Virus record (IMG/VR): IMGVR_UViG_3300042544_001941
Origin: a virus
Length of the DNA stretch: 64,000 nt
Strand: one strand, 5' to 3'
Below, in pieces: positions 12,668 to 29,775 of this stretch. How positions within the stretch are numbered: position 1 is the stretch's first letter; each line of letters begins with the position of its first letter. Made by a program: the position numbers and the translations under genes. The notes beneath the pieces are model-generated. The model had not been told where the DNA came from. It saw only the letters and a list, made by a program, of their open reading frames with translations, and made no database searches.

Positions 12668-12672
12668 AAATG

Positions 12673-13035: not shown

Positions 13036-13074
13036 ATTGTTTTCTCCTTTATTTCCAAAGAACGATAGTGTTTG

Positions 13075-13160
13075 TACCTGGAGCGGGAATCGAACCCGCA
13101 CGGACCTTACGGTCCAACAGATTTTAAGTCTGTCTTGTCTACCTATTCCAACACCCAGGC
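13075..13160 (-). tRNA. tRNA-Leu(TAA)
   Basis: Long variable arm, ACAGA-CTTAAAA-TCTGT. Confidence 0.93.
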
Positions 13161-13255
13161 AGTTTTAATACCACAACCTCAAAGAACTCTAAATAAAATA
13201 TAAGGAAAAAAACTAATAAAACAAAAAACCCGAACAAAAAATATTCGGGAGGTAG

Positions 13256-13327
13256 TACTCGGTACGGGATTCGAACCCGTGCTACGTCCGTGAAAGGGAC
13301 GCGACCTAACCACTAGTCGAACCGAGC
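13256..13327 (-). tRNA. tRNA-Glu(TTC)
   Basis: CGTCC-CTTTCAC-GGACG. Confidence 0.93.
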
Positions 13328-13332
13328 AAGTG

Positions 13333-13419
13333 CGGAGGCTCAGGGATTCGAACCCCAGATACCGTTTCCAGTATGACGGTTTTCAAGACCGTTCCATTCA
13401 ACCACTCTGGCAAGCCTCC
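13333..13419 (-). tRNA. tRNA-Ser(TGA)
   Basis: Long variable arm, ACGGT-CTTGAAA-ACCGT, G73. Confidence 0.93.
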
Positions 13420-13423
13420 AATC

Positions 13424-13585
13424 GTTGTTTCAACTTGCAAGTTTACTCTTAACATCTCTTTCTCTACAACGTCTGAACTTAATCACATTTGTAGTCCGAA
13501 TGTGGCGTTGGGTAATTACTCCGTGCCTCTATGTAACTCTATATACCTTGCTTTGTTACTAAGCGTGTTAAGTGTATGAAACAAC
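13424..13585 (-). ncRNA. Unidentified ~160-nt structured RNA between tRNA-Asp and tRNA-Ser
   Basis: Closing stem GTTGTTTCA/TGAAACAAC, inner TACACTTAACA/TGTTAAGAGTA, CAACG/CGTTG, CACATT/AATGTG. Confidence 0.5.
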
Positions 13586-13588
13586 TTG

Positions 13589-13662
13589 CGGACCGGACGG
13601 GACTCGAACCCGCGACCTCCGCCGTGACAGGGCGGCATTCTAACCAACTGAACTACCAATCC
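13589..13662 (-). tRNA. tRNA-Asp(GTC)
   Basis: CCGCC-CTGTCAC-GGCGG. Confidence 0.95.
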
Positions 13663-13666
13663 AATA

Positions 13667-13743
13667 TTGATTCTAACTCACCTTAAGTTGCACCATCCAA
13701 GTCACTGCTCTGGTTGACAAAGTCCTCGTTGAGTTAGTCTCAA
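13667..13743 (-). ncRNA. Unidentified ~75-nt structured RNA between tRNA-fMet and tRNA-Asp
   Basis: Closing stem TTGA..CTAACTCA/TGAGTTAG..TCAA with internal GTCA/TGAC hairpin. Confidence 0.4.
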
Positions 13744-13746
13744 GTG

Positions 13747-13818
13747 TTGCGAGAGAGGGAATCGAACCCCCGACCTAAAGGTTATGAGCCTTCCGAGCTA
13801 CCGCTGCTCTATCTCGCG
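13747..13818 (-). tRNA. Initiator tRNA-fMet(CAT)
   Basis: C1.A72 mismatch, CAT anticodon, GAAGG/CCTTT anticodon stem. Confidence 0.88.
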
Positions 13819-13861: not shown

Positions 13862-14002
13862 ATTATTCTTTGTTCATTTTTTTTATTTGTTCACGGAACG
13901 TGAACATTAACAATTTATGAACATTTAAAAATATAGGCAACATTGCCGAATTAAAACGATATAAAGTTTATACTAATAGTCATCATTGTCATATTTATTA
14001 GT

Positions 14003-14536
14003 ATGACAAACAGACTAAACGTATCGCTCTTACCGATACTGTACATCCTATTCGTGGGCTTATTGGTAAGGATTTTTCAACCGATTGAGGACCCAAAATC
14101 CGTCTACGTGGATAAAGTAGAGAACAAAGTGATTATTGGTAAAATGGCTAATAATCGAAATTTAGCTTTTGGGGCTAAAAACATTTTCCAAGAAATTTTA
14201 CAAGATAAGGATTATCTAATTGTCGAAGACATTACTAAAGCTGATTTAGTTTTTAGTGCTGAAATCTTATTTTTTGACGTTAATAAAACCAAGACTAATA
14301 TCTCAGTATTTCATTCAGATAAAGAAGAGACTTTGGTGGTAATGCGAGGTAAGTTAACAACTAAAGAAGGTAAGAAAATCAAAGAGGCAGTTGCCGAAGA
14401 ATCAAGTTCAGAAATCTCGACATCAACATTAATAACCGATGAAGGTAGTGATAAAATAAATCAACAAGCTCTTTCATCCGCGATTAAAAAGACGTGTGAA
14501 TCTTTAATAAATAAAGTGTTTTCAATTAAAAAGTAA
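14003..14536 (+). CDS. CsgG/LptE-fold-like envelope protein (paralog of 22637 ORF)
   Basis: N-terminal hydrophobic segment; FGAKNIFQEIL...INQQALSSAIKK parallels LGVANITMEYL...FNQSTISISTKK. Confidence 0.5.
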   Translation: MTNRLNVSLLPILYILFVGLLVRIFQPIEDPKSVYVDKVENKVIIGKMANNRNLAFGAKNIFQEILQDKDYLIVEDITKADLVFSAEILFFDVNKTKTNISVFHSDKEETLVVMRGKLTTKEGKKIKEAVAEESSSEISTSTLITDEGSDKINQQALSSAIKKTCESLINKVFSIKK

Positions 14537-14538
14537 AA

Positions 14539-16188
14539 ATGAAAAAATTATTAATTATCGGTGTGTTTTTATTATCCACCATTTCAACATTTGCTCAACT
14601 AACAGTCAATCAAACTATAACCCCAACAACGGGATTAAAGGTTGGTGACACATTAACGGTTAAGTACACTGTAACTAGAGGGACAACGACACCAAGATAT
14701 TTTTGGTTGAGGTATTCTTTTAACAATAAAGCGTTAGCTATGGTATCAAACAGTACTGTGTTCTCACAAGGTAGTTCAACTCAAACGTTTTTTACCGGTT
14801 GGAATAACTATAAGTTTACACCGGCACCGAATGTTGCTGATACACAATTATATGCACAATACACCACAACTCCTTGGGGATATGCCGCAAATAACGATTG
14901 GAATGTTGGTCAAATCACAGTTCAGAGAACTGATGCTGCAATCAACGGGGATATTGCAACTCAAAAATTTGTATTGAAGGACCAAAACACATATAATGAT
15001 ATTCATAAATTAGATTTATCATATGCAATTAATGACGCATCTACTAATATATCACCAATTACAAGAAGCTCAACAAATATTTCATTAAGTGGTGTTGTTG
15101 GGAATACTTCACAATTTAAAGTGAAAGTTTTATTCCCACAAGGATATGCAATTACTGACCATAATGTTCAATTAATGAAATTAAAAACAGATGGTAGTGG
15201 TACTATTGATTGGTCACAACAACCAATTGCTCAATTACCTTTAGATGCAACGGGTGAGGCATTATTTACAACACAAGTTAAAGTTGGTGATAGTTTAGGT
15301 GTGTTTGTTAGTCCTGCATCACAAAAGGCTTGGATGAATAATGTTATTACAGTTTCAGACGCATACAAAGCGTTTTTAGGACATTCACAAACAGATATAT
15401 CAGGAACTGCGAACTTCTTTACTTATCCAAATTTAGAGAAGAAGGTTGGTAACATCACTAAAAATGATAGTGTATTTAATGAATCAGATTCATATTACTC
15501 ATTTGCTTATGTTATGGGTCAAGACGTTTCAACAAATGCGTTCATTCCAACACAAGCGGCAACTTCTTGGAGATGGCATAGTGGTTTATTAAATCAAAAT
15601 TGGTTAGACGGTAATATCAAAAATAAAGTTACAATTGATACTCCCGTTAAAGAAGTATTTGCAGTTTACGCGTGGGGTGGTGACTTAAACTGGTCACATT
15701 CATCAGACCCTGCGGTAATTGCTAGTAGAATAAGTGCTGGACAATATACAAACTCAGTGAATTCAATTAATACTAAGACATCGATGTCAACACAATCAAT
15801 GTCATATAAAGCTGAGTCCGTTGAGACCGCTAAGTTAAGTGTAACATCAACATTAGAAAATGGTAAGGTTGTATTAACTACAAACTTAACAAAAGAAGGA
15901 TTGGCAGGATTGGAAGTTATTATGAATTATGACGAATCGAAATTAACATTGGATAATGTAATATTTGATGCAGGTTCTACAATAACAAACTTTTCAACAC
16001 ACAAAGACGGTAGATTAACTTTTGGTTCAATTGACCAATTGAAAACTGCAAGAATTAAGACAGGAACTCCGTATAAGTTGATATTCACACCAAAAACAAC
16101 TTTAACAAATACCGCCGGTTTATTCTACTTTGTTTTATCTGATGCTGTTGATGCGAAAGGAAATAAAGTTGATTTAATCGTCGAGTAA
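14539..16188 (+). CDS. Secreted protein with cohesin-like and dockerin-like domains
   Basis: Sec signal MKKLLIIG..FAQ; VSDAYKAF..GNITKNDSVFNESD; WGGDLNWSHS; C-terminal LAGLEVIMNYD beta-sandwich. Confidence 0.6.
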   Translation: MKKLLIIGVFLLSTISTFAQLTVNQTITPTTGLKVGDTLTVKYTVTRGTTTPRYFWLRYSFNNKALAMVSNSTVFSQGSSTQTFFTGWNNYKFTPAPNVADTQLYAQYTTTPWGYAANNDWNVGQITVQRTDAAINGDIATQKFVLKDQNTYNDIHKLDLSYAINDASTNISPITRSSTNISLSGVVGNTSQFKVKVLFPQGYAITDHNVQLMKLKTDGSGTIDWSQQPIAQLPLDATGEALFTTQVKVGDSLGVFVSPASQKAWMNNVITVSDAYKAFLGHSQTDISGTANFFTYPNLEKKVGNITKNDSVFNESDSYYSFAYVMGQDVSTNAFIPTQAATSWRWHSGLLNQNWLDGNIKNKVTIDTPVKEVFAVYAWGGDLNWSHSSDPAVIASRISAGQYTNSVNSINTKTSMSTQSMSYKAESVETAKLSVTSTLENGKVVLTTNLTKEGLAGLEVIMNYDESKLTLDNVIFDAGSTITNFSTHKDGRLTFGSIDQLKTARIKTGTPYKLIFTPKTTLTNTAGLFYFVLSDAVDAKGNKVDLIVE

Positions 16189-16189
16189 T

Positions 16190-18487
16190 ATGAAGAAACT
16201 ATTAGTAATATGTTTTTTACTAATTTCATTTTTAGGGTTCGGACAGAGCGTATCTGCTCCGGACTCTAAATCATTTATACCATCCACAACTGGACAAGAC
16301 GCAAGTGGATTTGTATTAAATGGTTTTAGTTCTACCTCAACACTTTTAGCATCGATTAGTTTAGTAAATCCACCATCAGGTACAACATTTACATTAAACA
16401 CCACAACAGGTTTAACTGCTGCAAGTGGATTTACATTATCGGGTAATAAGACTCGTTTGGTAGTAACGGGAACGATGGCAAGTATCAATACCGCATTAGC
16501 ATCCCTAAAAGTAAACACAGGTTCGGTAAGAGGTAATGTTTTATTATCAGTAGCGGCAACCGTCAATCCGACGGGATATTTTTATAACGGAACAAATGGA
16601 CACTTTTATAGACCAATATCAACCGGAGCGACTTATACAAATGCTAGAACACTATCATCACAACAAACATTCAAAGGTCAACAAGGATACTTAGTAACAA
16701 TTACTTCCGCAGATGAAGATGCATTTATTTTTAATAATGTACCTCAATCAAATATATGGTTTGCATTAACCGATGAAGCAAGTGAAGCAAGATGGACAAT
16801 TGATGCTGGACCTGAAGCGGGAACTCTAATTAAAATAAATAACGGACAACTAAACGGAAATATTCCTGGTCAATACAATAACTGGGCACCAGGTGAACCA
16901 AACAATAGTGGTAACGAAGATTATGCAGTAACAAAATGGAATGGTTCTCAATGGAACGATTTACCAAACCATTTTTCAAATCCGTATGTGGTTGAATTTG
17001 GAACTTGGACTAATCCTGATGATGCAACATTTACAGAGTTTTATACAAATTCGGTGACCCACTCAAACGGAGAAGTCCTAACCGCAAGATTTAATTTTGA
17101 TTTTGGTGGTAATGTGGATGAAACTAAATTCACCGCCAAAGCAAATACTTTTGTAAATAATGTATGGGGTACAACAACTAACACATCGAGAGCAATAAGT
17201 GGATTAGGTAAGGTTGATATTACAAATGATTTAGATACTGCAAAAATAAGTAATGGTGGTGTTAGAGCAACAACAACCACAGGACAAGTAGAATGGTGTG
17301 TGATATATGATTATGATGTAACCAATCAAAGATATAGAATTGGAATAGATAGTAGAGAAGTAAATGGAATAGTTACAAACCCATCTACAATTAGTAGTTT
17401 ACAATTATTTGATTTATGGAACGGTCCAGTAACATTTAATTCTTATAATGCAAATGGTTGGACTGAGGTTTATGTTTATACCTCAACACAATTTAATTTC
17501 TCAGGTTCGTCTTTCGCATCATCTATAAGGGCAGGAAATGGATTTTACGGATTAAAAGCTGAATTTACATTCACACCAACAACTTCGTATAAACAACACG
17601 GTATCGATTTATCATATACCAATCAAACCGAATTAAACACTTTATATAATAGTGTTGTAACGGTATCGGATGTGTTTATAGCATTTAAAGAATTATCAAA
17701 TGGTGGGATATTTGGAGACCAAAGTGGATTAGAATTTACATCGGGTATTCAATTTATGAACGCAGATGTAGATGGTAATGGTATTTTTAATGAAGCGGAT
17801 ACTTACAAATTATTACAACATTTAACAGGGGTTGCGCCGCTAACACAATATTCTACTTTAACTTATTTGATGAAATTATATGGTAAAACTGAATATGATG
17901 CAATAACTAAATCCAATTGGAGTAGTCAATTTAACTCAACAAGAAGTTTGTACCCATTTAATTTGAATAGTGGTACGTTGAATAACACTTACAACGTAAA
18001 TGTAACTTGGGTCGGTGATGTGAATCTATCACATTCGGCTCGACAAACAACAAGTGGTGTTGCAAGTAATTCAATTAGAACTATGAGTTTATTAACTATG
18101 AGTTCATCAGTTCCTAATCAAATCGATGCAACTCTTATGGGTGAAAACATCGGTGGTAAAGTTGTGATAACAATTTCGGTAGACCCTTTACAACAAGAAT
18201 TAGTAGGAACTCAATTCCAAGTAAATTATGATAATACCTCATTAGAATTTCAAAAGGTAGATTTTACAACAAAGGGTAATCCTACAAATTTTGGAACAGA
18301 CAGAGGTACGTATGTCACATTAGGTTCGTTAATTACAGATGGTTCAAATACATTGGATAAAACAACTGAATACAAAATAACATTCATACCAAAAGTCGGC
18401 ATTCAAGGAATATTGGGATTAACATCAATATCAACAACAGATGCAGTTAATAAAGACGGAAAACAATTAAAGGTGAAATTAAACTAA
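16190..18487 (+). CDS. Secreted C-type-lectin + dockerin + cohesin protein
   Basis: Signal peptide; GYLVTITSADE..WFAL..YNNWAPGEPNN..EDY..WNDL (CTLD); ADVDGNGIFNEAD (dockerin-type loop); LVGTQFQVNYD (cohesin-like). Confidence 0.7.
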   Translation: MKKLLVICFLLISFLGFGQSVSAPDSKSFIPSTTGQDASGFVLNGFSSTSTLLASISLVNPPSGTTFTLNTTTGLTAASGFTLSGNKTRLVVTGTMASINTALASLKVNTGSVRGNVLLSVAATVNPTGYFYNGTNGHFYRPISTGATYTNARTLSSQQTFKGQQGYLVTITSADEDAFIFNNVPQSNIWFALTDEASEARWTIDAGPEAGTLIKINNGQLNGNIPGQYNNWAPGEPNNSGNEDYAVTKWNGSQWNDLPNHFSNPYVVEFGTWTNPDDATFTEFYTNSVTHSNGEVLTARFNFDFGGNVDETKFTAKANTFVNNVWGTTTNTSRAISGLGKVDITNDLDTAKISNGGVRATTTTGQVEWCVIYDYDVTNQRYRIGIDSREVNGIVTNPSTISSLQLFDLWNGPVTFNSYNANGWTEVYVYTSTQFNFSGSSFASSIRAGNGFYGLKAEFTFTPTTSYKQHGIDLSYTNQTELNTLYNSVVTVSDVFIAFKELSNGGIFGDQSGLEFTSGIQFMNADVDGNGIFNEADTYKLLQHLTGVAPLTQYSTLTYLMKLYGKTEYDAITKSNWSSQFNSTRSLYPFNLNSGTLNNTYNVNVTWVGDVNLSHSARQTTSGVASNSIRTMSLLTMSSSVPNQIDATLMGENIGGKVVITISVDPLQQELVGTQFQVNYDNTSLEFQKVDFTTKGNPTNFGTDRGTYVTLGSLITDGSNTLDKTTEYKITFIPKVGIQGILGLTSISTTDAVNKDGKQLKVKLN

Positions 18488-19380
18488 TGAAAAAGTTATT
18501 ATTAATTCTGTCACTAATTTTGACAACATTTGTTACAAACGCACAAATACAAAAACCCGATACATTACAACTATCACCAAAAGAACTATTTGGAGAAAGT
18601 GATGATTGGAACGATGTGGGTATATTACAATCATATGTTAATTTTTCAAAAGATGTACTTTCATCATCAAATCTTTCAATTGGTGTAATTGGTAGACAAG
18701 TATCAACTACTCTTAATTTAGGGTATCATAAATCATCTATGAATGGGCAGTGGGGACATTCATTCGCAGCATCAATAAATCCTATATGGAAGTATTATGG
18801 TGTGGGTTATGGTTTAAGTAGAAATACCGAAAAGAGAACAACTACAATACAATCATTTTATTCAACCGATTTTGATTTCCAAAAAGATATTACACTATCA
18901 TTTATAGATGTATTCAGAACTAAAAAGTGGGGAACATTTGGATATAGTTTAACAGCATCAAAATCATTTTGGGGAACTTATCAAGGTGAGTGGGAAGGAA
19001 AATATACAGTAGATGAAAATGGTGATTTTAAAGATTTAATATATCCACAAATGCCAGCATCATCTGAACTTACTTATAGAGGTATGGCGATGTACACTTA
19101 TACATTTAAAACTAAAAGAGTAAATATTTCACCTCAGTTATTTGCAATGAGTGATGTATATAAAGTATTCAAAGATGGAACTGAATCGGATTTATCATAT
19201 GTAGATGATTTCAATTTGGACTTATATTATGGTACATCTATTGATTGGAAAATAACTAAAAGATTTGTGTTAAATACTAATATTAGATATAACACAACTT
19301 GGGATAAATTAAGTGAATCAGTTGGATATAAAAAGAGTAACCCAATCCTATTTATGATAGGAACAAACTTTCAATTCTAA
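18487..19380 (+). CDS. Outer-membrane beta-barrel protein
   Basis: Signal peptide, alternating aromatic strands, C-terminal IGTNFQF BAM-type signal. Confidence 0.7.
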   Translation: MKKLLLILSLILTTFVTNAQIQKPDTLQLSPKELFGESDDWNDVGILQSYVNFSKDVLSSSNLSIGVIGRQVSTTLNLGYHKSSMNGQWGHSFAASINPIWKYYGVGYGLSRNTEKRTTTIQSFYSTDFDFQKDITLSFIDVFRTKKWGTFGYSLTASKSFWGTYQGEWEGKYTVDENGDFKDLIYPQMPASSELTYRGMAMYTYTFKTKRVNISPQLFAMSDVYKVFKDGTESDLSYVDDFNLDLYYGTSIDWKITKRFVLNTNIRYNTTWDKLSESVGYKKSNPILFMIGTNFQF

Positions 19381-19637
19381 TGAAAAAAGTATTATTACTC
19401 ACATCGTTAGTTTTAACTTTTTCATCTTGTGTTAGATATAAGATTAAAATGGTGGAATATGATGGTACAGGTTATTCATTATATCTACCGATGAAAAAAT
19501 ATGGAATGGGTAAATGGTATGACGATAATGTAATATACTATTCGGAAGAAATGGCTAGATTTAAAATTGAAAAATGGAAAAGTAATGAGTATTATTTAAA
19601 TCCTTTTAAAACTTCAAAATATATTAAAATACAATAA
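19380..19637 (+). CDS. Small lipoprotein
   Basis: MKKVLLLTSLVLTFSSC lipobox. Confidence 0.7.
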   Translation: MKKVLLLTSLVLTFSSCVRYKIKMVEYDGTGYSLYLPMKKYGMGKWYDDNVIYYSEEMARFKIEKWKSNEYYLNPFKTSKYIKIQ

Positions 19638-19979
19638 ATGAAAAAATTATTATATATATCATTGATTTTAATGGTTGGGTGTACAAAAATGGAAATAGAA
19701 CCCACTCCACCTCCTGTTGAGAAGATATTTACAGTGGGTGAGAGTACTGTTATTAATGGACAATCCATATATTTTGACCTACCGTCCTCAGGAATATATA
19801 CCCTAACGTTTGTTGACGTTCAGACAGGACAAGTTATTAGTCGGGAAAAATTTACAGGCCAATCCGGCGAAAATGTGAAGAAAATATATACCAAATCCAT
19901 AATGTCGAAGTATTTATATTTGATACTTGCTTCGGAAGACAAAACCCAAATAAGTAAGACAAAACTAACACTAAACTAA
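19638..19979 (+). CDS. Lipoprotein with Ig-like/T9SS-CTD-like domain
   Basis: LMVGC lipobox; YTLTFVDVQTGQVISRE..GENVKKIYT. Confidence 0.55.
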   Translation: MKKLLYISLILMVGCTKMEIEPTPPPVEKIFTVGESTVINGQSIYFDLPSSGIYTLTFVDVQTGQVISREKFTGQSGENVKKIYTKSIMSKYLYLILASEDKTQISKTKLTLN

Positions 19980-19980
19980 A

Positions 19981-20358
19981 ATGAAAAAACTAATCTTAAC
20001 GGTATTTGTACTATTTGCCCTTACGGGGTGTTATAAAGATGATTTACTTCTTCCTGATATTAAACAGGATTTAAAACCTGAATTACAAATTGCCAATAGC
20101 GTTGGTATTAAGTTAGAATCGGCTTTTGTAACCAAAGAAGTATCAATGAATGTAAAACTTGAGAAATCAGGTACAGTAACTTTAAAAATATTCGATATTG
20201 GAAATAAAGTAGTTTCAAAAGAAACTATAAATGTGAAAGAGGGTGATAATGTGTTAAAAATATACACATCAGCATTACCTTCTTCAGCATATAGAATTGG
20301 GTTATTTGATAACTCGGGGACTATGTTGGGTATCACAGATTTTAATAAAATAAACTAA
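19981..20358 (+). CDS. Lipoprotein with T9SS type-A CTD-like domain
   Basis: ALTGC lipobox; VTLKIFDIGNKVV..EGDNVLKIYTSALPSSAYRIGL. Confidence 0.6.
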   Translation: MKKLILTVFVLFALTGCYKDDLLLPDIKQDLKPELQIANSVGIKLESAFVTKEVSMNVKLEKSGTVTLKIFDIGNKVVSKETINVKEGDNVLKIYTSALPSSAYRIGLFDNSGTMLGITDFNKIN

Positions 20359-20378
20359 AAAATTAAAAAATAAAAATT

Positions 20379-21098
20379 ATGGCAGACAGAAACGGAGACG
20401 GAGTTGTTTATCATCGCTCGGATTGTGGTGATAACTATGTAAGATGGTATGGATTCGGAGGAGATGGACCTTGTTCGGCGTGTGATACGTGGGGATTAAC
20501 CAATAAAGCAATAAGATACATTCACGACCATCCTGAAATAAATCATAGAGTTGAAGATGTGGTAGGTAGAGAATGGGAAGAAGAAGTTATGCCGGTACTT
20601 ATTAATGTTGGAAATCAAATAGAATCTGGTGTTAAAGAGGGATATGAAGTGGTAAAAGATGGTGCTGTGATGGCATATAACTGGGCGGACGAAAACGCTT
20701 GTAATATAGCAATAACCGCAGTAATCTCTGCCGGTGTTGTTGCGGCATTTACACCAGCACAACCTGCTGGAGCGGCAACTTCAACTACGTTATCGTTGAT
20801 GGCTACGCCTGTTCTTTACGTTGCAGATGTGGCAGCTAAAATGGCAGTATCAACGGCAATGGGTGTAATAGTGGCAGATGGATTTTTATCAATACCTGGT
20901 GTTGGTGAAAACATTGACTCAGAATTATTAAGAAATGTATGTTCAAATTGTATCTATCATAGTTTAGATTCGGCGGCATTATGGGCTACCCCTGCTGGAG
21001 TTGGTATTGCAATCGGAACTGCAGTAGCACCTATTATTGCGGATTTGATATGTACTAGAACTTGTCCTAATGGATTCAGTAAAGCATTAGGTGCATAA
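20379..21098 (+). CDS. Cys-containing protein with hydrophobic Ala/Gly-rich C-terminal helices
   Basis: CSAC, CSNC and CTRTC motifs; hydrophobic tail. Confidence 0.65.
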   Translation: MADRNGDGVVYHRSDCGDNYVRWYGFGGDGPCSACDTWGLTNKAIRYIHDHPEINHRVEDVVGREWEEEVMPVLINVGNQIESGVKEGYEVVKDGAVMAYNWADENACNIAITAVISAGVVAAFTPAQPAGAATSTTLSLMATPVLYVADVAAKMAVSTAMGVIVADGFLSIPGVGENIDSELLRNVCSNCIYHSLDSAALWATPAGVGIAIGTAVAPIIADLICTRTCPNGFSKALGA

Positions 21099-21137
21099 TG
21101 TTAATAAAATAAAATAAAAAATTAAAAAACAAATACA

Positions 21138-21458
21138 ATGTCAGAAGAAGTAGAACAAAACAACGATGGTACTTGGTCAGGTCTTAAAAAGACCATTATT
21201 GGTGTTGCAACAACTGCGGTAATGGGTCTAGGGACTTGGGGAGTAACACAAATAACAGGTGGTGGAGATGAACCCGCACCTGTACAACAAGCTGCACCTG
21301 TAATTAATATTACAAACTCAAACCAACAAGCTCAACAGGCTTCAGGTGGTGGAGGTAAAACTGTTATTATTAAAGAAAAAGAAACCGTTAAAGAACCTGC
21401 AAAACCGGTTAAGAAAAAAGAAGGTGATGAATTTAAAGAGGAAGCACCAAAATGGTAA
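21138..21458 (+). CDS. Single-TM membrane protein
   Basis: TIIGVATTAVMGLGTWGV segment, low-complexity tail. Confidence 0.7.
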   Translation: MSEEVEQNNDGTWSGLKKTIIGVATTAVMGLGTWGVTQITGGGDEPAPVQQAAPVINITNSNQQAQQASGGGGKTVIIKEKETVKEPAKPVKKKEGDEFKEEAPKW

Positions 21459-21464
21459 TTTAAT

Positions 21465-22070
21465 ATGAAAGAAGAACAATCAGGTGGATTTAAAGAATTA
21501 TTGAGTAATATGATGAAACGTAGGTGGTTTATCACCGCTATCGTTTTAGGTGGGTTTATGATAATCATTATGGGGATATTTGGGGCCATTCTAAATAAAT
21601 CCGCAATAGAAGGTGAGTGGAAAGAACTTTTACTTTTATTATTGGGAGCCTTCATTGGTTCTTATGGTAAAATCATTGACTATTGGTTTAGTGATACTGA
21701 TAAGGATAAGATGTTGGTTCAAAAAATGGACGAGGAAGATGGTACATCATTAAGTAATACTGCCGATATGCCAAACAATCCAATTGTACCAATGTCAACT
21801 GCACCATTAGTATTATCAGAATCAACCTCACAAGAAACAGTACAAGTGGTTGAAGCACCAAAAGAAGAAAAGAAAGGTGTTGAAATCGATGAAGATGGTG
21901 ATGGTGTAATGGATGGTTTAGATTTCGATGGCGATGGTAAAATTGACGAATACTTCGCACACAGACAATGTGAACACGTTTGGGGTGACTTAGACGGAGA
22001 CGGAACTGAGGAGTGTTTAAAATGTGGAAAAATTAGAGATGACTACGCTGAAATGACAATGGAAGGATAA
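21465..22070 (+). CDS. Two-TM protein with DxDGDG Ca-binding loops and CxH/CxxC finger
   Basis: DEDGDGVMD, DFDGDGKID, DLDGDGTEE; CEH..CLKC. Confidence 0.7.
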   Translation: MKEEQSGGFKELLSNMMKRRWFITAIVLGGFMIIIMGIFGAILNKSAIEGEWKELLLLLLGAFIGSYGKIIDYWFSDTDKDKMLVQKMDEEDGTSLSNTADMPNNPIVPMSTAPLVLSESTSQETVQVVEAPKEEKKGVEIDEDGDGVMDGLDFDGDGKIDEYFAHRQCEHVWGDLDGDGTEECLKCGKIRDDYAEMTMEG

Positions 22071-22105
22071 AATAAATAATAAACAAAAGACAAAAAAACA
22101 AAACT

Positions 22106-22381
22106 ATGGGATTTCTTAAAGAACTTTTTAAAGACAACAATGACATCAACGAAAAATCAGTAGTTGGATTCTTATCATTCATAATGATGGTAATTGCATT
22201 AATCGTCGACTTGGTAACAGGTTGGATGGGTAAGGAATTATTAATCAATGAATATATTTTCAACGGATTTTTAGTAATTACTTTAGGTGCATTTGGTATT
22301 GCATCGGTTGACAAATATATCAATAGAAAAGCTGAACACGACAAAAATAAATTAGATTCTGAAACAGAATCTGAAGGATAA
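22106..22381 (+). CDS. Two-TM small membrane protein (holin-like)
   Basis: Two hydrophobic helices, charged C-terminus. Confidence 0.6.
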   Translation: MGFLKELFKDNNDINEKSVVGFLSFIMMVIALIVDLVTGWMGKELLINEYIFNGFLVITLGAFGIASVDKYINRKAEHDKNKLDSETESEG

Positions 22382-22408
22382 TAGGGCATTGACAAAAAAA
22401 CTAAATTT

Positions 22409-22633
22409 ATGACAACAATTTTAAAAAAAATTGAGGAGAAAATAGTGCAAGGTTTCTTAGCACTTGGCCTCATCTGGGTTACATTAGCATTAACAGTACA
22501 AGTATTCTTTATTTACTTACAATTTTCAGGACAAGAAGAAAGAGCAGGTGAAATATCAAGAAAAGTAAGTTGGAAAATTGATGGTAATTTTAAAAACAAC
22601 CCTGATAACATATGGTATGAAGGACCAAAATAA
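22409..22633 (+). CDS. Small single-TM protein
   Basis: GFLALGLIWVTLALTVQVFFIYL. Confidence 0.65.
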   Translation: MTTILKKIEEKIVQGFLALGLIWVTLALTVQVFFIYLQFSGQEERAGEISRKVSWKIDGNFKNNPDNIWYEGPK

Positions 22634-22636
22634 AAA

Positions 22637-23359
22637 ATGATGAAAAAAATATTTTTACTTTTAGGTATTATACTTGTTAGTATAACCTCATTTGGACAAA
22701 CAGTTGGTAAAACTCAAACGGAGCAATATAAAGCATCTTTTGAGACTGCAATAGACATTTCACAATTCTTGGATTATGATGGAAAACAAATCCCAATTCA
22801 AATCCTAAAGGCCGGTATCTCTGACGAGATGTATGAGATGTATCCTGAGTTAAAGGAGAAAAGAGTTGGGTTAGGTGTTGCAAACATCACTATGGAATAT
22901 TTGGAAAATCTTAATCGTTTCAAATTTACTGAAGACAAGACGGAGATAAAAAACAGAATGGTAAAACAATTCCAAGCATCTCAAGCTGGTATTTCTGAAA
23001 ACAAATTGGATGGTAGGGGTAAAATTAATTTGGCCGAATATTTTGTAACCGTTGAATGTTATGATTATTCGGTATCAGAAGATGAAACAGTTAACTTAAA
23101 AGATGGGGTAAAAAATTTAATGGTTACTCGTATCGGTCTGCAAGTTCGTTTTACAAACGCAGAAACCGGTGTAGTTTTTGGAGCATCAGGATTAGGTGAG
23201 GCTAAAACAACAAGAGAATTAACTCTTTTATCAGATGCAACAGTTGACCCTGTAAAATTCAACCAATCCACAATATCAATATCAACCAAAAAAGCATTAG
23301 ATATCGCTTGTGCTAGAATTTTAGATAGAATGATTAAAAAGGGTATTTTTGAGAAGTAA
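22637..23359 (+). CDS. CsgG/HfaB-family-like envelope protein
   Basis: Signal peptide; NLNRFKFTED, AEYFVTVECYDY, RIGLQVRFTNAETG pattern of the CsgG fold. Confidence 0.65.
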   Translation: MMKKIFLLLGIILVSITSFGQTVGKTQTEQYKASFETAIDISQFLDYDGKQIPIQILKAGISDEMYEMYPELKEKRVGLGVANITMEYLENLNRFKFTEDKTEIKNRMVKQFQASQAGISENKLDGRGKINLAEYFVTVECYDYSVSEDETVNLKDGVKNLMVTRIGLQVRFTNAETGVVFGASGLGEAKTTRELTLLSDATVDPVKFNQSTISISTKKALDIACARILDRMIKKGIFEK

Positions 23360-23386
23360 CTTAAAAAAACATATATTTTAAAATGA

Positions 23387-23410
23387 AGGGGTTTAAACAC
23401 CCCTTTTTTT
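23387..23410 (+). terminator. Intrinsic terminator
   Basis: aagggg-loop-cccctttttttt. Confidence 0.7.
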
Positions 23411-23423
23411 ATATTTATAAGAT

Positions 23424-23603
23424 ATGAAAAAGTTTTATAGAGTTAGGGACAATAAAGTGTTTTTTGGGGTTTGTGAGGGATTAGGTCATCATACTAACGT
23501 TGACCCGTTAATTTGGAGACTTTTATTCTTCTTTTTAATTTTTACCCCTGCACCAATAATAACAGGTTATTTATTAACCGCAATTTTAACTAAAAGCATA
23601 TGA
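23424..23603 (+). CDS. pspC: PspC domain protein (not in ORF track)
   Basis: MKKFYRVRDNKVFFGVCEGLGHHTNVDPLIWRLLFFFL...GYLL matches the PspC pattern; TATTTATA 4 nt upstream. Confidence 0.8.
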   Translation: MKKFYRVRDNKVFFGVCEGLGHHTNVDPLIWRLLFFFLIFTPAPIITGYLLTAILTKSI

Positions 23604-24448
23604 GAAAAAATTCATTAATCACAGGTTTAGTAATTTTATTACTATCTATGACAACATCGTCATTTTCACAAGTTAGTAATTGGAGAAGTAATCCACCTAC
23701 ACCTCAAAGGTCTACACCATCAATACAACCATCCGCTCCACAAAGAAACGATGTTAGTAATTGGAGGAGTCAACCACCATCAAGAGGGTATGATAGACCT
23801 ATAAGAACAAGACCCGGTTCAAACATAATCGTTAGAGACCCGTGGTTTGGTGGATTAGGGTGGGGATGGAATAGATGGGATATGTGGGGAGCACCTGCAT
23901 TTGGTTGGAACTTTTGGCAACCGTCTTGGTATTGGAATGATTGGGGATATAGACAACCACAAAGAATTTATATTTACGAAGATGGTAAGAGAGATACAAT
24001 TAGAGGTAAAAAGCCGGTAATTAGTTTTGGTATTCAAAGAACAACCGATAAACAATTGGGCGGATTCTTTACCATCGGTAATAAGGGATATTTTATAATG
24101 GAATATAATTCAAGCGTAGAGAGAGATAATTCAACATTCTTTCCATTTGGTAATATAACCCAAGTAGACTTTCCAATGGTCAGTGATTTAGTTCAAAGAA
24201 ATAGTTTCTATATCGGAGCCGGTAAAAGAATAAAGAGAACCGGTGTTCACTTTATGATTGGTACTGTTTCCGAAGATGTAAAATGGAGAGGTAGAGATGA
24301 TTTGGGATATATTACTTTTCCAAAGTATTTGGATAGATTCACCACTATAAAAGTGGGTGCATTACACGATTTCAAAAACTTAACAATAAAGTTTGATTAC
24401 GACCCTGTAATCAATAATAAAACCTTTGGATTAGGTGTAAATTTTTAA
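23600..24448 (+). CDS. Outer-membrane beta-barrel protein with Pro/Trp-rich N-terminal region
   Basis: Signal peptide; duplicated VSNWRS; C-terminal FGLGVNF. Confidence 0.7.
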   Translation: MRKNSLITGLVILLLSMTTSSFSQVSNWRSNPPTPQRSTPSIQPSAPQRNDVSNWRSQPPSRGYDRPIRTRPGSNIIVRDPWFGGLGWGWNRWDMWGAPAFGWNFWQPSWYWNDWGYRQPQRIYIYEDGKRDTIRGKKPVISFGIQRTTDKQLGGFFTIGNKGYFIMEYNSSVERDNSTFFPFGNITQVDFPMVSDLVQRNSFYIGAGKRIKRTGVHFMIGTVSEDVKWRGRDDLGYITFPKYLDRFTTIKVGALHDFKNLTIKFDYDPVINNKTFGLGVNF

Positions 24449-24451
24449 AAT

Positions 24452-25198
24452 ATGTTAGATTTTGATTTAAAAGTTTATGAAATGAGGGATGTTCTAACAA
24501 CTGATGAATATAACGAGTTGTCAGAATTGGTTGCGGATTTTAAAATTGATTTGAATAAAATAAATTCATCTTTAGGTTTTTTACAATGGTCTAAAAAAAT
24601 CCAAGATACAATGAAAAGTAAACATCCTGAGGAATTTGAAAGAATGAAATCAACCAATCTTTTAAATTATGAGGATTATATGTTATTGTCGGTAATTAAT
24701 GACGAAGTTGGGTTGAATGTGAATGATAAAAATCTTTTTCATACTGATTATGATTATTTTAATTTTTTATTGACTCACAGAGATGATGAATTAATGAATA
24801 CTAGAATTGTTAAATTATATGACAAAGCGTTTAGATTTATACTAACCGATTTATTTAAAAAGGAAGTGATACATAAAGATGTCTTATTCGGTCATTTTAA
24901 TGTGTATCCTAAAAATTCTTTTATTGTAAATCACACGGATGGACCAACCGCAAGTAACAGATATTTTACTATTCTATTTTTCTTAAATAAAGGTAGAACA
25001 TATGAAGATGGCTCAATATTAAAAGTACATAAAGAAAATGAAACAGTTGAATTTATTCCTGATTTCAATAAAATAATTTTATTAGACCATATGAAATACA
25101 ATTATTATCACGAAGTAACTAAAAATAATTCTGATAATGTTCGTTATTCATTATACACACCATTTAGTATTGACGACTATAATAATCGATTACAATAA
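24452..25198 (+). CDS. 2OG-Fe(II) oxygenase (prolyl-hydroxylase-like)
   Basis: HTD...YYHEV...VRYS facial triad and 2OG-binding Arg. Confidence 0.8.
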   Translation: MLDFDLKVYEMRDVLTTDEYNELSELVADFKIDLNKINSSLGFLQWSKKIQDTMKSKHPEEFERMKSTNLLNYEDYMLLSVINDEVGLNVNDKNLFHTDYDYFNFLLTHRDDELMNTRIVKLYDKAFRFILTDLFKKEVIHKDVLFGHFNVYPKNSFIVNHTDGPTASNRYFTILFFLNKGRTYEDGSILKVHKENETVEFIPDFNKIILLDHMKYNYYHEVTKNNSDNVRYSLYTPFSIDDYNNRLQ

Positions 25199-25219
25199 GA
25201 ATAATAATAATAATAATAA

Positions 25220-26659
25220 TTGAAAAAGATAACCCTATTAATTTTATTTGTGACACTAACATCAATTAAACTCCTTGGTCAGACCTACACCCAAAGTTTT
25301 GTTGATAAATGTACCGGTGAAAAAAAGATAGCCACCACAACTATGATTAATGGGTATGCGACCGTATCTTTTTATAATCAAATAAGAACATTCACACCTT
25401 TAGAAGTTCAAACAGGAGTTGTACAGGGTTGGTTATTATCAACAAAAACTACATATGAATCATTAACCTGTCCCGTTATAAATAATCCTATAGTACAACA
25501 AGCAGTAACAAACGCAGCTGCGGCAACTGCAACCGCAGCCGCCGCGTCCGCAGCATCATCAGCCGCAAGTTCTGCGGCGTCATCATCGGCAAGTGCTGCG
25601 GCAAGTAGTTCTGCAAGTTCAGCGGCTGCAAGTTCAGCAGCATCAACACCTCCACCAACACCACCAACACAAAGTAGCTCAACTCCACCACCCGCTAGTG
25701 GTAGTTCATCACAAAGTGGAGGTAGTTCTTCATCATCTTCATCACAAAGCTCGGGTAATTCATCTGAAAGTAAGACGGAAACAAAAACCGAAACTAAATC
25801 AGAAACAAAGAGTGAAACTAAATCCGAATCTAAATCAGAATCTAAATCTGAAAGTAAGAGTGAAGAGAAGAAGGAAGAATCTAAATCAGAATCGAAAGAA
25901 GAAAAAAAGGAAGAAAGTAAATCAGAAGAGAAAAAAGAAGAAAAGAAAGAGGAAAAGAAGGAAGAGAAAAAAGAAGAAAAGAAGAAAGAAAAGGCTGCAG
26001 TATCTAATCCAATGTTACTTTCTTCAGATTTATCAACAATAGAATCTCCCGATGGTAGATGGTTACAATCTGCAACAATCGGAGTGTCTAAATCTTCATT
26101 GATGGGTGATAAAAGTTATTCGGCGAATACGGTGATTATGAGTGATTTAAAAACATTCATTGTAAGTGGTGGATATACTAAGATGGATTTTTCAAACGGT
26201 AAATTAAACGCGATACATTCTTATTCAAGTGCGTTTGCATATTTGAATGGGAACTATATGAACTTATTAGGATACACGTGGATTAAACCAACACAAAAGA
26301 AAGGTGTATTTGGTTACAATTTAGGTCTTATTAATTTATTATTGAAAGATGAACAGAATAAAAAGTTTAACCATAATATGTCAACATCAGTTGTAGCGTT
26401 TTGGACAAAACCATTTCAATATAGTAGAAAATTAACGATATCTCCACAGGTGTTCACAATGTTTGCACCTATATCATATAATAGCGCCGCACAAGTAACC
26501 ACAGTTAATAGACATATGGGATTTCTATTAGGTTCTTCTTTTGATTATAAGATAAGTAAAAGATTCGGTCTTAGTGTGAATTATAAATTAAGTGGTAACA
26601 CTGCACCGGGTTCTCCGTTCTTAAGTAATTTCTTGGTTGGTAGTAGAATGATTTTATAA
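25220..26659 (+). CDS. Secreted protein: N-domain, long Ala/Ser-Pro-Glu/Lys linker, C-terminal beta-barrel
   Basis: TTG start, signal peptide, low-complexity tracts, aromatic beta-strands. Confidence 0.7.
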   Translation: MKKITLLILFVTLTSIKLLGQTYTQSFVDKCTGEKKIATTTMINGYATVSFYNQIRTFTPLEVQTGVVQGWLLSTKTTYESLTCPVINNPIVQQAVTNAAAATATAAAASAASSAASSAASSSASAAASSSASSAAASSAASTPPPTPPTQSSSTPPPASGSSSQSGGSSSSSSSQSSGNSSESKTETKTETKSETKSETKSESKSESKSESKSEEKKEESKSESKEEKKEESKSEEKKEEKKEEKKEEKKEEKKKEKAAVSNPMLLSSDLSTIESPDGRWLQSATIGVSKSSLMGDKSYSANTVIMSDLKTFIVSGGYTKMDFSNGKLNAIHSYSSAFAYLNGNYMNLLGYTWIKPTQKKGVFGYNLGLINLLLKDEQNKKFNHNMSTSVVAFWTKPFQYSRKLTISPQVFTMFAPISYNSAAQVTTVNRHMGFLLGSSFDYKISKRFGLSVNYKLSGNTAPGSPFLSNFLVGSRMIL

Positions 26660-26730
26660 AAAAACCCCCAATGTAGAAACATCAGGGGTTCATTGACAAA
26701 AAAACTAAACGTATCTCTTAACGATACTAA
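26660..26730 (-). ncRNA. Putative antisense sRNA 'D' ending in terminator
   Basis: Complementary to 14004-14040, 22387-22405 and 22089-22104; ends in aacccc..ggggg-T-run hairpin. Confidence 0.5.
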
Positions 26731-26750
26731 TAAAATCTATACTATTATTT

Positions 26751-27098
26751 TCAAATAGTCAAGTCCTTATGTAATTTTATTATTTTTGAACAAACTTCAT
26801 AATCTTCAACCTGTTCAAAATACGGCATTACATCCCTAAGTAGGGTTTCCTTATCGTCTTTAGAAAAGGTGAAATCGGTGTCCCATTCCAATCCTCTAAT
26901 TTTTGCAACAACGGATAAGGTCAATTTCTTTTTTCTTGTGGTTCGTAATAATTCGAATAAATCTAAAATGTTTTTGTAAATGACTTCTTTATTACCGTCG
27001 TAAAAATCGGTGAAATCATTAAAACTACCCTCAATGTTTAATACAATGTCGGGTTGAGTACTTCTTTTTCTCGTAGGTTTGGGTGCGTAGTTTGACAT
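26751..27098 (-). CDS. Hypothetical protein with UVR-like C-terminus
   Basis: FEQVEDYEVCSKI. Confidence 0.65.
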   Translation of the reverse strand: MSNYAPKPTRKRSTQPDIVLNIEGSFNDFTDFYDGNKEVIYKNILDLFELLRTTRKKKLTLSVVAKIRGLEWDTDFTFSKDDKETLLRDVMPYFEQVEDYEVCSKIIKLHKDLTI

Positions 27099-27160
27099 TT
27101 AAAATAGTGTTTGGTTAGAAGTACAAAATAAATAAAAATTTGGAATATAAAAAAATATTT

Positions 27161-27313
27161 TTATTTTTTGTTAACAACTATTTCTTCCAAATAATCTATC
27201 TGTTTTTTCAGAGAATACACCTCTTTTCTATAATGCTCCACCACGAAATACAAAGAAATGAGCATCAATAAATTTATAACAAATAGTATTGTGTTGTTTC
27301 GTTTTTGATTCAT
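27161..27313 (-). CDS. 50-aa TM + coiled-coil protein (not in ORF track)
   Basis: MNQKRNNTILFVINLLMLISLYFVVEHYRKEVYSLKKQIDYLEEIVVNKK*. Confidence 0.55.
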   Translation of the reverse strand: MNQKRNNTILFVINLLMLISLYFVVEHYRKEVYSLKKQIDYLEEIVVNKK

Positions 27314-27374
27314 AAAATAAATTAGGTTACGATTAAAAAAGAAGGGAGGAGGGATTAAACCCTCCCCTCCAAAC

Positions 27375-27560
27375 TTATTTTACTTCAGTTGAAGTGCTGT
27401 CAGTTGGAATCTGACTGGTTGTTGAATCATTTGCTGTTACAGCAGTTGTGTCAACTTGAGCTGCCGTTGAGTCAGTTGTTTCAGTTGTGGTTGACCCGTT
27501 ACCACAGGCAGTTAATGCCAATGAGGCAAAAATACCAAAGATTAATATATATTTTTTCAT
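27375..27560 (-). CDS. Small Thr/Ser/Asp-rich lipoprotein
   Basis: ALTAC lipobox; repeated D-S/T-T. Confidence 0.8.
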   Translation of the reverse strand: MKKYILIFGIFASLALTACGNGSTTTETTDSTAAQVDTTAVTANDSTTSQIPTDSTSTEVK

Positions 27561-27609
27561 ACTATTGTAAATATACGTAATTTTATCGATAAAACAAAAT
27601 ATTTGAAAA

Positions 27610-27716
27610 TAAAAAACCCCAACAAGATGTCGGGGTTTTAAGGTCTTTCGGTGGGTTCAACCCCACTTACTTATGAAAAAAAACGAAAAGGTAATCGACA
27701 AAGAGAACCTTTGAGA
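27610..27716 (-). ncRNA. Putative small late RNA 'B'
   Basis: TATTTATA (27718-27725, minus), no ORF, gtggg/cccac hairpin, terminator aaaacccc..ggggtttttt. Confidence 0.5.
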
Positions 27717-27753
27717 ATATAAATATATATGATTCTCATAAAAAGTCAACTAT

Positions 27754-29775
27754 TTACAATATTTTTTTTGTAAATGTTAATTTTTCGTCTTTAAATTTAA
27801 GTGTAATAGAAGTATTTTCAACAATATTACCTTTCAATATCTCTTCACTTAAGAAATCTTCACATAGATTTTGAATAATCCTTTTAATCGGTCTTGCACC
27901 ATATTCTTCCTCAGAATTTAGTTCGTGAATCTTCGCAATTACGGATTTGTCAAATGTAATCTTAAAGTTCTTCTCCTTTAATCGGTCATTCAATCGTGAC
28001 AATTCAATATCAATGATTTTTTTCAATGTGTCATCATTTAAAGGGTTGAACGTGATAACATCATCAATACGGTTTAAAAACTCGGGATTGAATTGTTGTT
28101 TTAGTGCTTTTTGAATTATCGATTTCTTCACTTCAGCTTTTTGAGTTTCTTTACTGTTAGTTGCAAAACCCATACCATCACCAAAATCCATAACCTTTTT
28201 AGCACCTACGTTTGATGTCATAATAATCAAAGTATTTGTAAAATTTACTTTTCTTCCAAAAGAATCGGTTAAATGTCCCTCATCAAGTATTTGTAATAAG
28301 ATATTGAATACGTCTTTATGTGCTTTCTCAATCTCATCAAATAATATTACAGAGAATGGATTGTTTTTAACTTTTTCAGTTAATTGACCTCCTTCGTCAT
28401 AACCAACATAACCAGGAGGAGAACCAATTAATCTTGATACATTATGTTTCTCCATAAACTCACTCATATCAACCCTAATTATTTTATTAGGGTCACCGAA
28501 TAATGTTTCCGCTAATGATTTTGCCAAGAATGTTTTTCCAACACCTGTTGAACCTAAGAAGATGAATGAACCAATTGGTTTATTGGTATCTTTAATACCT
28601 ACACGATTTCTTCTTATCGCTTTTGAGATTGTCTTAATCGCATCATCTTGACCAATAACTTTAGACGATAGTATATCTTCTAATTTTAATAACTTTTCAG
28701 TTTCTTTAGAGTCTAATTTACTAATTGGAACTCCTGTCATATTGGATACGATTTCGTACACATCTTCGACAGTCACAGGAGTTTTATTTTCCTTTTGTTT
28801 TATCGTCCATTTTTCTTTTTCATCATCGAGTTTCTTTAAAATCTTTCTTTCCTCATCTCTCAATTTAGCGGCTTGTTCGTAATTTTGATTTTTAACTACT
28901 TGAACCTTTTTTTCTTTGATAGCTTCCGCGTCCTTCTTAAGTGTTTCAATTATCTCAGGAATTTTACCCGAGATTTTTTTGTCTGAACCTAATTCATCTA
29001 AAATATCAATTGCCTTATCAGGAAATTGTCTATCAGTAATATATCTTAAAGATAAAGTTGTTATTGTCTCAACAACATTGTCTTGATATTCAACCTTATG
29101 AAATTCTTCATATGAAGACTTTAAGTTCTTCAATATTTCAATCGTTTCAGATTGTGTTGGTTCCTTCAAGATAATTTTTTGAAATCTTCTAACCAATGCA
29201 GAATCTTTCTCAATATGTTTTTTAAATTCATCAAATGTCGTTGCACCGATACATTGCATTTCACCTCGAGCTAATGCGGGTTTTAAAATATTAGCAGCGT
29301 CCATAGCACCACTAGCATTACCTGCACCTACCATTGTGTGTAATTCATCAATGAATACAATTACATTAGGATTTTCTTGAAGTTCGTTTAATATCGCCTT
29401 AATTCGTTCTTCAAATTGTCCTCTATATTTCGTACCAGCAACAAGTGATGTTAAATCTAACGACACCAATCTTTTATCCAACAAATTACTCGGACAAACA
29501 CCTTTGTGAATTTGTATTGCAAGTTTTTCAACGAGAGCAGATTTACCAACACCCGCATCACCTACAATTACAACGTTATTCTTTTTTTTGCGAGAAAGAA
29601 TTTGGGAAATTCTCTTCACTTCGTTATCTCTCCCAACAACCGGGTCAATCTTTCCTTCTTCTGCGAGTTTAATTAAATCTCTTGAGAAATTATCAAGGAT
29701 TGGAGTTGTAGAAGTTCCTCTTCTATTTTTTTGATAAGGTTTTGGACCCCCGTCTTCTAAAAAGTCTACCGACAT
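27754..29775 (-). CDS. clpC: ClpC-like AAA+ ATPase lacking the N-terminal domain
   Basis: Two Walker A (GDAGVGKS, GSTGVGKT), UVR middle domain (QNYEQAAKLRDE), GMGF ClpP-docking loop. Confidence 0.9.
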   Translation of the reverse strand: MSVDFLEDGGPKPYQKNRRGTSTTPILDNFSRDLIKLAEEGKIDPVVGRDNEVKRISQILSRKKKNNVVIVGDAGVGKSALVEKLAIQIHKGVCPSNLLDKRLVSLDLTSLVAGTKYRGQFEERIKAILNELQENPNVIVFIDELHTMVGAGNASGAMDAANILKPALARGEMQCIGATTFDEFKKHIEKDSALVRRFQKIILKEPTQSETIEILKNLKSSYEEFHKVEYQDNVVETITTLSLRYITDRQFPDKAIDILDELGSDKKISGKIPEIIETLKKDAEAIKEKKVQVVKNQNYEQAAKLRDEERKILKKLDDEKEKWTIKQKENKTPVTVEDVYEIVSNMTGVPISKLDSKETEKLLKLEDILSSKVIGQDDAIKTISKAIRRNRVGIKDTNKPIGSFIFLGSTGVGKTFLAKSLAETLFGDPNKIIRVDMSEFMEKHNVSRLIGSPPGYVGYDEGGQLTEKVKNNPFSVILFDEIEKAHKDVFNILLQILDEGHLTDSFGRKVNFTNTLIIMTSNVGAKKVMDFGDGMGFATNSKETQKAEVKKSIIQKALKQQFNPEFLNRIDDVITFNPLNDDTLKKIIDIELSRLNDRLKEKNFKITFDKSVIAKIHELNSEEEYGARPIKRIIQNLCEDFLSEEILKGNIVENTSITLKFKDEKLTFTKKIL

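Follow-up and report, generated by a model that had tools for sequence, protein, structure and literature searches.

The segment at positions 26660–26730 of the 64,000-nucleotide stretch of viral DNA analyzed here (the window) raises the question of why a short sequence at the end of a cluster of envelope genes should match the start regions of genes within that same cluster. An earlier note interpreted it as a small RNA acting in trans on several targets, and offered shared protein-binding sites or relic repeats as alternatives. We find these alternatives less likely than an antisense small RNA, and the core idea, an antisense RNA aimed at start regions of the envelope cluster, is strongly supported by the sequence comparisons described here.

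The window forms part of a large phage genome of about 32% G+C. It encodes a terminase (35470), a portal (37283), and a major head protein (42614), and no lysogeny genes were noticed in it. Among related viral contigs, lengths of up to 324 kb are found, with an estimated completeness of 97%. On the minus strand of the window there are RNA genes of three kinds: seven for tRNAs, one for a tmRNA, and one for a GOLLD RNA. The GOLLD RNA at 10617–11024 matches the full-length Rfam model RF02032 with 311.8 bits, the tmRNA lies at 7382–7772 (103.6 bits), and the two adjoin the array of tRNA genes at 12593–13818.

The genes from 14003 to 26659 all share one orientation, and their products are mostly exported or membrane proteins, with matches that include a C-type lectin, a PspC domain, and a 2OG-Fe(II) oxygenase. 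The predicted model of the gene 1 protein (pLDDT 73) has its best PDB matches in PelC, CsgG, TraT, and LptE, which are ring-forming outer-membrane lipoproteins (E ~1e-5, TM ~0.5); a PelC/CsgG/TraT-like fold is thus suggested by a model of moderate quality. The cluster had been taken for a single envelope operon, a description that we abandon, as a plus-strand terminator and a new TATTTAT motif divide this 12.7-kb region into at least two late units (Table 1). The predicted small RNA gene is at the end of the second unit, and its main target heads the first.

Table 1. Features of the predicted small RNA unit, its candidate targets, and neighboring genes, in window coordinates.
Feature	Position	Strand	Remarks
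Late motif TATTTAT	13992..13998	+	4 nt before ATG 14003
Gene 1	14003–14536	+	177 aa, signal-anchored, predicted leaderless
Main target	14003..14040	+	First ~38 nt of the predicted late transcript; first 13 codons of gene 1
Third match	22089..22104	+	15/16, before ATG 22106; not above window background
Second candidate target	22387..22405	+	19-nt perfect seed complement, -22 to -4 of ATG 22409
Terminator	23385–23406	+	TATTTAT at 23412 directly after, then PspC-domain gene
PspC-domain gene	23424–23603	+	Pfam E = 3e-17
Converging 479-aa gene	TAA stop 26657–26659	+	Overlapped by U-run of small RNA terminator
Intrinsic terminator	26655..26691	-	13-pair stem-loop 26691–26662, then U-run
Seed	26692..26710	-	CGUUUAGUUUUUUUGUCAA; U-rich, predicted single-stranded
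5′ hairpin	26711..26727	-	GUAUC-GUUAAGA-GAUAC; fold prediction
-10-like box TAGATT	26734..26739	-	17 nt after -35 box, 6 nt before hairpin G
-35-like box TTGACT	26757..26762	-	Within last codons (Leu-Thr) of 115-aa gene
115-aa gene	26751..27098	-	TGA at 26753–26751; predicted small RNA unit always just 3′ of the gene

The segment itself is predicted to be a compact minus-strand unit in which a two-box promoter is followed by a 5′ hairpin, a U-rich single strand, and a terminator, with a transcription start probably at or near the first base of the hairpin, 26727. The proposed minus-strand terminator is indeed present as a stem-loop followed by a T-run; because the T-run is found only on the minus strand, with TTCATTGAC and no T-run after the stem-loop on the plus strand, the terminator evidently serves the minus strand. 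The fold of the unit is considerably more stable than those of shuffled sequences (z = -4.4), and the seed is unpaired in the predicted fold as well as in most of the 16 relatives folded. The seed complements 14004–14022 with two mismatches, and 22387–22405 perfectly. A search of 26500–26900 against Rfam gave nothing at the gathering score (the best match, Yfr10, has E = 0.1 and is below threshold), and the predicted RNA appears to represent a new family. We also considered and rejected a small open reading frame, as the plus-strand frame has 21, 13, and 3 codons in three lineages and is not conserved. In silico, then, this is a discrete unit with a predicted promoter and terminator of its own, and with no conserved reading frame.

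The 115-aa gene that precedes the unit has no Pfam or PHROG family, and hence neither source gives it a function. In most relatives a pattern resembling TTG-~19 nt-TAnnTTTG is seen 25–35 nt upstream of its ATG (it is listed for the related loci L133, L136, L140, L144, L151, and L153); this is a promoter of the Bacteroidota sigma-A type, and the gene is therefore probably read by the host polymerase rather than from the late motif. We also note that relative G001 (L008 5384–5620) has about 240 nt of extra non-coding DNA that separates the small RNA terminator from the stop codon of the 479-aa gene and is present neither in the window nor in relative G002.

When viral contigs were scanned for an exact 18-mer, 18 matches were obtained; two of the contigs are relatives and the rest are unrelated, with some of the unrelated matches being ordinary sigma-70 promoters of other phages. 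The two relatives have an identical 36-nt core, while their 115-aa proteins are only 76% and 65% identical to that of the window, and they show a compensatory change from C-G to U-A in the terminator stem. A profile search with the 115-aa protein then provided 36 loci, with three more fetched later. About 28 of the 36 carry the RNA unit directly after the 115-aa gene, and its elements follow in the same order: an AT-rich box, a small hairpin, a U-rich stretch ending in UUGUC(A), the terminator, and a T-run. The architecture is shared by 21 further distinct loci, in which protein identity falls as low as 44%, and 24 distinct related loci have one layout after the 115-aa gene. In RNAalifold analysis of 21 sequences, five of seven terminator pairs show compensatory changes. 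The terminator was the only structure recovered from the full alignment because the 5′ hairpin is misaligned by variation in loop length, and single-sequence folds were used for it instead; these indicate that the hairpin is kept in most lineages and varies by way of U.G and G.U pairs, which speaks for the minus strand, since the same changes would be mismatches on the other.

Alignment of the loci at the end of the 115-aa gene provides the main evidence for a promoter. In all 24 distinct sequences a TTGAC[AT] box is followed after exactly 17 nt by TAnnnT, with T1, A2, and T6 of the second box invariant; the spacer varies freely in sequence and is constant in length, and the 17-nt spacing is kept even where the protein is extended and its stop codon lies 2 nt from the hairpin. 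The first G of the hairpin is usually 6–8 nt past the second box. The window's own boxes are listed by a simple promoter scan, the two-box pattern is not enriched in the window alone (4 found, 2.2 expected), and the TTGAC box is doubly constrained because it also encodes a conserved Leu-Thr; it is thus the comparative conservation that carries the case for a promoter. We note that the 8-mer TAGATTTT (26732–26739) resembles the Bacteroidota -7 box and is also consistent in geometry with the flavobacterial sigma-A box, TAnnTTTG at -12 to -5 (PMC9723704), and that with either box the predicted start is at about 26727.

The earlier note had assigned the upstream element to the late class. The late-motif-like sequence GATTTTATT is on the minus strand as proposed (plus-strand 26729–26737), but it is not TATTTAT and it overlaps the conserved -10-like box. 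We rejected the late-promoter reading, as a canonical TATTTAT precedes the hairpin in few relatives, and there at inconsistent distances, whereas the two-box pattern is invariant. The promoter thus appears to be of the two-box sigma-70-family type (TTGACT-17-TAGATT) and not of the late type.

These observations bear on the possibility that the element lacks a separate promoter and functions solely as the 3′ untranslated region of the mRNA for the 115-aa protein, in which case pairing would couple the fates of two mRNAs. We initially held this view and revised it after the promoter analysis, and now regard it as unlikely. It accounts well for the element always lying between the stop of the 115-aa gene and that gene's only terminator, and for the stop codon being 2 nt from the hairpin in three lineages, and the conservation of the -35 box could reflect its Leu-Thr coding alone; it does not readily account for a 17-nt spacing and a TAnnnT that are invariant in 24 of 24 loci in the face of a variable spacer and a moving stop codon. 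The two readings are moreover compatible, since the long mRNA would carry the same antisense segment.

What, then, is the RNA antisense to? The motif TATTTAT is found 3–6 nt before the ATG of the terminase, portal, and gene 1, and of several other genes; examples are at 35459, 37272, 13992, and 23412 on the plus strand and at 59828 and 52551 on the minus strand. It is kept before the gene 1 homologues in nearly all of 27 related loci; five additional contigs stop short of this region and gave no match to the gene 1 protein. Because of this proximity to start codons and this conservation, TATTTAT is plausibly a late promoter element that gives rise to leaderless or near-leaderless mRNAs, and such mRNAs may account for many of the late transcripts in this phage family. 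We note that two relatives that have the 115-aa gene and lack the RNA unit also lack the GACAAAA element after TATTTAT.

In an unbiased search, the reverse complement of each RNA was compared with the locus that encodes it. The highest-ranking match is always on the operon strand and starts 4–6 nt after a TATTTAT, and the similarity between RNA and target never includes TATTTAT itself. In the window, L151, and L161 the target is coding and corresponds to the start of gene 1, while in L135, L164, L168, and L170 it is a non-coding leader situated 80–100 nt before the first gene; in L134, in which the cluster is short, it is the leader of a different first gene. Start codons in general, which had been suggested as the targets, are thus not what is conserved: the conserved feature is predicted complementarity to the extreme 5′ end of the converging late operon transcript, whether this is coding or not.

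Two further observations concern these regions. In L135 (~20145–19935, operon strand) the leader is followed, just before the first ATG, by a terminator-like hairpin, AAAAAATCCTG...CAGGATTTTT, which could be an attenuator acted on by the small RNA. In addition, the start of the 479-aa homologue, ATGAAAAAAATAATTATCTCTCTCCT, which encodes a signal peptide, is often the next-best duplex partner (-24 to -32 kcal/mol; L151 11972, L144 12125, L142 11984, and L165 12133, all on the operon strand), and this may be either a secondary target or a similarity arising from shared signal-peptide coding.

All three matches described in the earlier note are present in the window. Plus-strand 26694–26728 matches 14004–14040 at 32 of 35 positions with a 2-nt gap, 26691–26709 is identical to 22387–22405 over 19 of 19 nt, and GACAAAAAAACTAAAC matches 22089–22104 at 15 of 16 positions and ends 1 nt before ATG 22106. 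These differ greatly in weight, however, when the minus-strand RNA is folded against every 50-nt stretch on both strands of the whole window. The background energy is -10.7 kcal/mol (sd 3.1), and the best unrelated site, at -24.7 kcal/mol, defines a noise floor. The 14003 site reaches -39.7 kcal/mol, nine standard deviations from background, and the 22387 site reaches -26.5 kcal/mol, with its seed alone at -25.2 against a seed floor of -17.5; the 22089 site, at -22.7 kcal/mol, is inside the noise, where unrelated sites score as well. Two of the three matches therefore exceed chance expectation. We note that weak secondary matches are inflated by the A-rich, low-complexity character of the target; the 17-mer is not enriched in the window when up to three mismatches are allowed (6 found, 2.7 expected), and there are only two or three copies of the repeat in 64 kb.

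The three sites also differ in their distribution among relatives, and only the 14003 site is a conserved target. The 22387 site lies in an A-rich region before the start codon of a 74-aa membrane protein gene (ATG 22409) that has no Shine-Dalgarno sequence; it is found in the window phage and, shortened to 14 nt, solely in the close relative G001, and it is absent from more distant relatives. It is likely to be a second site that is specific to this lineage. A counterpart of the 22089 site is found at the same place in G001, where it matches at 15 of 15 positions. The multi-target small RNA as first proposed is thus retained as an antisense unit of about 70 nt on the minus strand, but not in the breadth of its targets, since only the 14003 site is conserved and the 22089 site is indistinguishable from noise. 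A nucleotide search with 25500–28000 against the GenBank phage collection gave no match.

The most informative evidence comes from the comparison of RNA and target in different phages. Between lineages, one third or more of the RNA positions differ, but the RNA of each phage still follows its own target: in each of 12 lineages it is antisense to the first ~30 nt after that phage's own TATTTAT, at the head of the converging operon. For example, the window pair is TGACAAAAAAACTAAACGTATCTCT and TGACAAACAGACTAAACGTATCGCT, that of L135 is GACAAAAAACAATAAATGTACCTCTCGAT and GACAAAAAACAATAAATGAATCTCTCGAT, and that of L173 is TGGCAAGAAATGACTAAACGCACTCTCTATAC and TGGCAAAAAATAATAGACTAAACGTCTCTCTATTAC. 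Over the 12 lineages the alignment scores of own pairs sum to 467, as compared with 287.5 (sd 25) when partners are permuted, and the duplex energies sum to -383.6, as compared with -247.6 (sd 19); in both cases not one of 50,000 permutations reaches the observed value. The co-variation called for in the earlier note is thus clearly present. Loci L171–L173, which are among the 12, provide a prospective test, as their targets were known first and the RNAs fetched after, and the match was found in all three; the matches include a GAC to GGC change, and in L172 the GAC has been lost in both partners. By eye, and with few informative sites, the mismatches between RNA and target are not enriched for G.U-compatible changes, a pattern that would fit either RNA-level pairing or two DNA repeats evolving in concert. 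Predicted anatomy, conservation, complementarity, and co-variation are what the sequence analysis shows, and we conclude that this is a real, conserved, and co-evolving pair of regulator and target, in which the regulator is most likely a trans-acting antisense small RNA.

Similarity that changes in step could also be maintained at the DNA level, if the two copies were direct repeats that bound a variable module and were either kept alike by gene conversion or left behind by recombination that relocates the module, with no function as RNA. Repeats flanking mobile cassettes are familiar from T4-type phages (PeSL elements). Here the copies are direct and flank a cluster whose gene content is highly variable among relatives, the module between them being only ~1 kb in L134, and the types of mismatch do not favor RNA pairing. 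We nonetheless consider this explanation improbable. Exchange between phages requires similarity between genomes and not within one, and in a single genome direct repeats would favor loss of the module. The core is identical within sub-lineages while its flanks diverge; the similarity always begins 4–6 nt after TATTTAT and never includes the promoter, and the downstream copy is always inside an opposite-strand unit of promoter, hairpin, seed, and terminator. Concerted evolution of repeats would leave that promoter, the strand-specific terminator and hairpin, and the sharp boundary at the transcript start unexplained.

Neither copy is easily seen as the site of a sequence-specific protein, whether the site is a DNA operator or is recognized by an RNA-binding translational repressor similar to RegA of T4. 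Repetition of a sequence at start regions is a typical feature of translational operators, and the hairpin GTATC-N7-GATAC is a small palindrome; but the palindrome is poorly conserved, and one would expect a site bound by a protein to be invariant or to vary at a few contact positions, whereas here the two copies show matched changes at many positions along some 30 nt in 12 lineages. We judge this very improbable. Finally, that the matches are chance similarities among A-rich start regions of an AT-rich genome would suit the lack of 17-mer enrichment (6 against 2.7 expected, with up to three mismatches) and the 22089 site, which is in the noise, but for the 14003 and 22387 sites it is refuted, with the former nine standard deviations off background and co-variation unequaled in 50,000 permutations, and as a general account it is scarcely credible.

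We therefore return to a trans-acting antisense small RNA whose pairing partner is the 5′ end of the late mRNA from the envelope operon, a reading that we consider probable. According to this model, bases 26727 to ~26658 of the minus strand would encode a small RNA of about 70 nt, expressed from its own two-box promoter. The late transcript would start 4–6 nt after the TATTTAT at 13992, and the RNA would pair with it in trans, 12.7 kb away, the duplex extending from position +2 of the leaderless gene 1 mRNA through codon 13. Such pairing could hide the 5′-terminal AUG from ribosomes, or could create a long duplex prone to cleavage, and by either route expression of the first late unit would be lowered. 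Synthesis of the RNA, its timing, and its repressive effect are inferred from sequence, and repression seems the simplest reading. In leader-bearing lineages the effect would have to be on stability or elongation, since the target there is in the 80–100-nt leader and not at the start codon. We also note, as speculation, that because the second unit has no plus-strand terminator before the small RNA gene, late read-through would yield a perfect RNA complement.

A more elaborate version, which we offer as a long shot, is that each lineage has a private pair of small RNA and leader that silences the late envelope operon, that a read-through decoy releases it, and that the pair could act as a label of incompatibility. 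The operon of envelope proteins would be kept silent by an RNA transcribed from a host-type promoter; converging late transcription through the RNA gene would then produce the decoy, a perfect one, and free the operon, which would make this a self-reinforcing timer; and the differences between lineages could serve as labels of hetero-immunity in mixed infections, as with c4 in P1 and P7.

Beyond the particular mechanism, these loci constitute a natural series of compensatory variants in which regulator, promoter, terminator, and target can all be defined by comparative sequence alone. If confirmed, the system would be an example of post-transcriptional control of a phage-encoded cell-envelope module, and of antisense regulation that acts on a leaderless mRNA at its 5′ end, while the matched pairs found across lineages would provide ready-made orthogonal sets of regulators and targets. 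To our knowledge few regulatory RNAs are known from lytic phages. In the literature we found no report of a regulatory RNA from large uncultivated freshwater phages, and nothing relevant on an RNA of this kind in that on jumbo phages.

The system has features in common with several that are well known, while differing from each. The PeSL elements of T4-type phages are likewise short stem-loop repeats that flank variable gene cassettes; in those phages, however, the repeat includes the promoter, occurs numerous times, and is read in the direction of the genes, whereas here the promoter is excluded, there are two or three copies in 64 kb, and one of them is on the opposite strand. A second comparison is with MicL and DapZ, enterobacterial small RNAs that are embedded in the 3′ ends of genes and have an internal promoter, MicL targeting the mRNA of an outer-membrane lipoprotein. 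As in those cases, the predicted promoter here is inside the end of a protein gene, the gene's terminator is shared, and the seed is single-stranded. MicL and DapZ, however, are host RNAs with short, Hfq-dependent seeds, while the RNA described here has long and near-perfect complementarity, and is predicted to pair with a leaderless phage mRNA at its extreme 5′ terminus.

Two further comparisons are with phage antisense RNAs. The c4 RNA belongs to the immunity region of temperate phages; it is processed out of a transcript that also contains its target, further downstream, and acts by means of two short complementary segments. For the c4 antisense RNA of P1 and P7 (Citron and Schuster 1990, as summarized in PMC12197685), the resemblance is that a small phage RNA pairs in trans near a translation start, and that regulator and target differ in step between phages. 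The RNA described here differs from c4 in having a predicted promoter of its own on the opposite strand, 12.7 kb from the target, from which it converges on the cluster, and in having one long complementary stretch of ~35 nt, in a large phage; the c4 family gives no match in 26500–26900 among Rfam models at E ≤ 10. The cis-antisense RNAs sar of P22 and OOP of lambda, from lambdoid phages (listed in PMC12197685), are also small, terminator-ended phage antisense RNAs, and they block translation or trigger cleavage; the sar model scores 13.8 bits against our segment (E = 6.9), which is far below threshold. Both overlap their targets on the opposite strand, whereas the only cis overlap seen here is that of the U-run with the stop codon of the 479-aa gene, and the 14003 and 22387 sites are distant; as this RNA would be encoded apart from its target, its complementarity, unlike that of sar and OOP, must be maintained by co-evolution.
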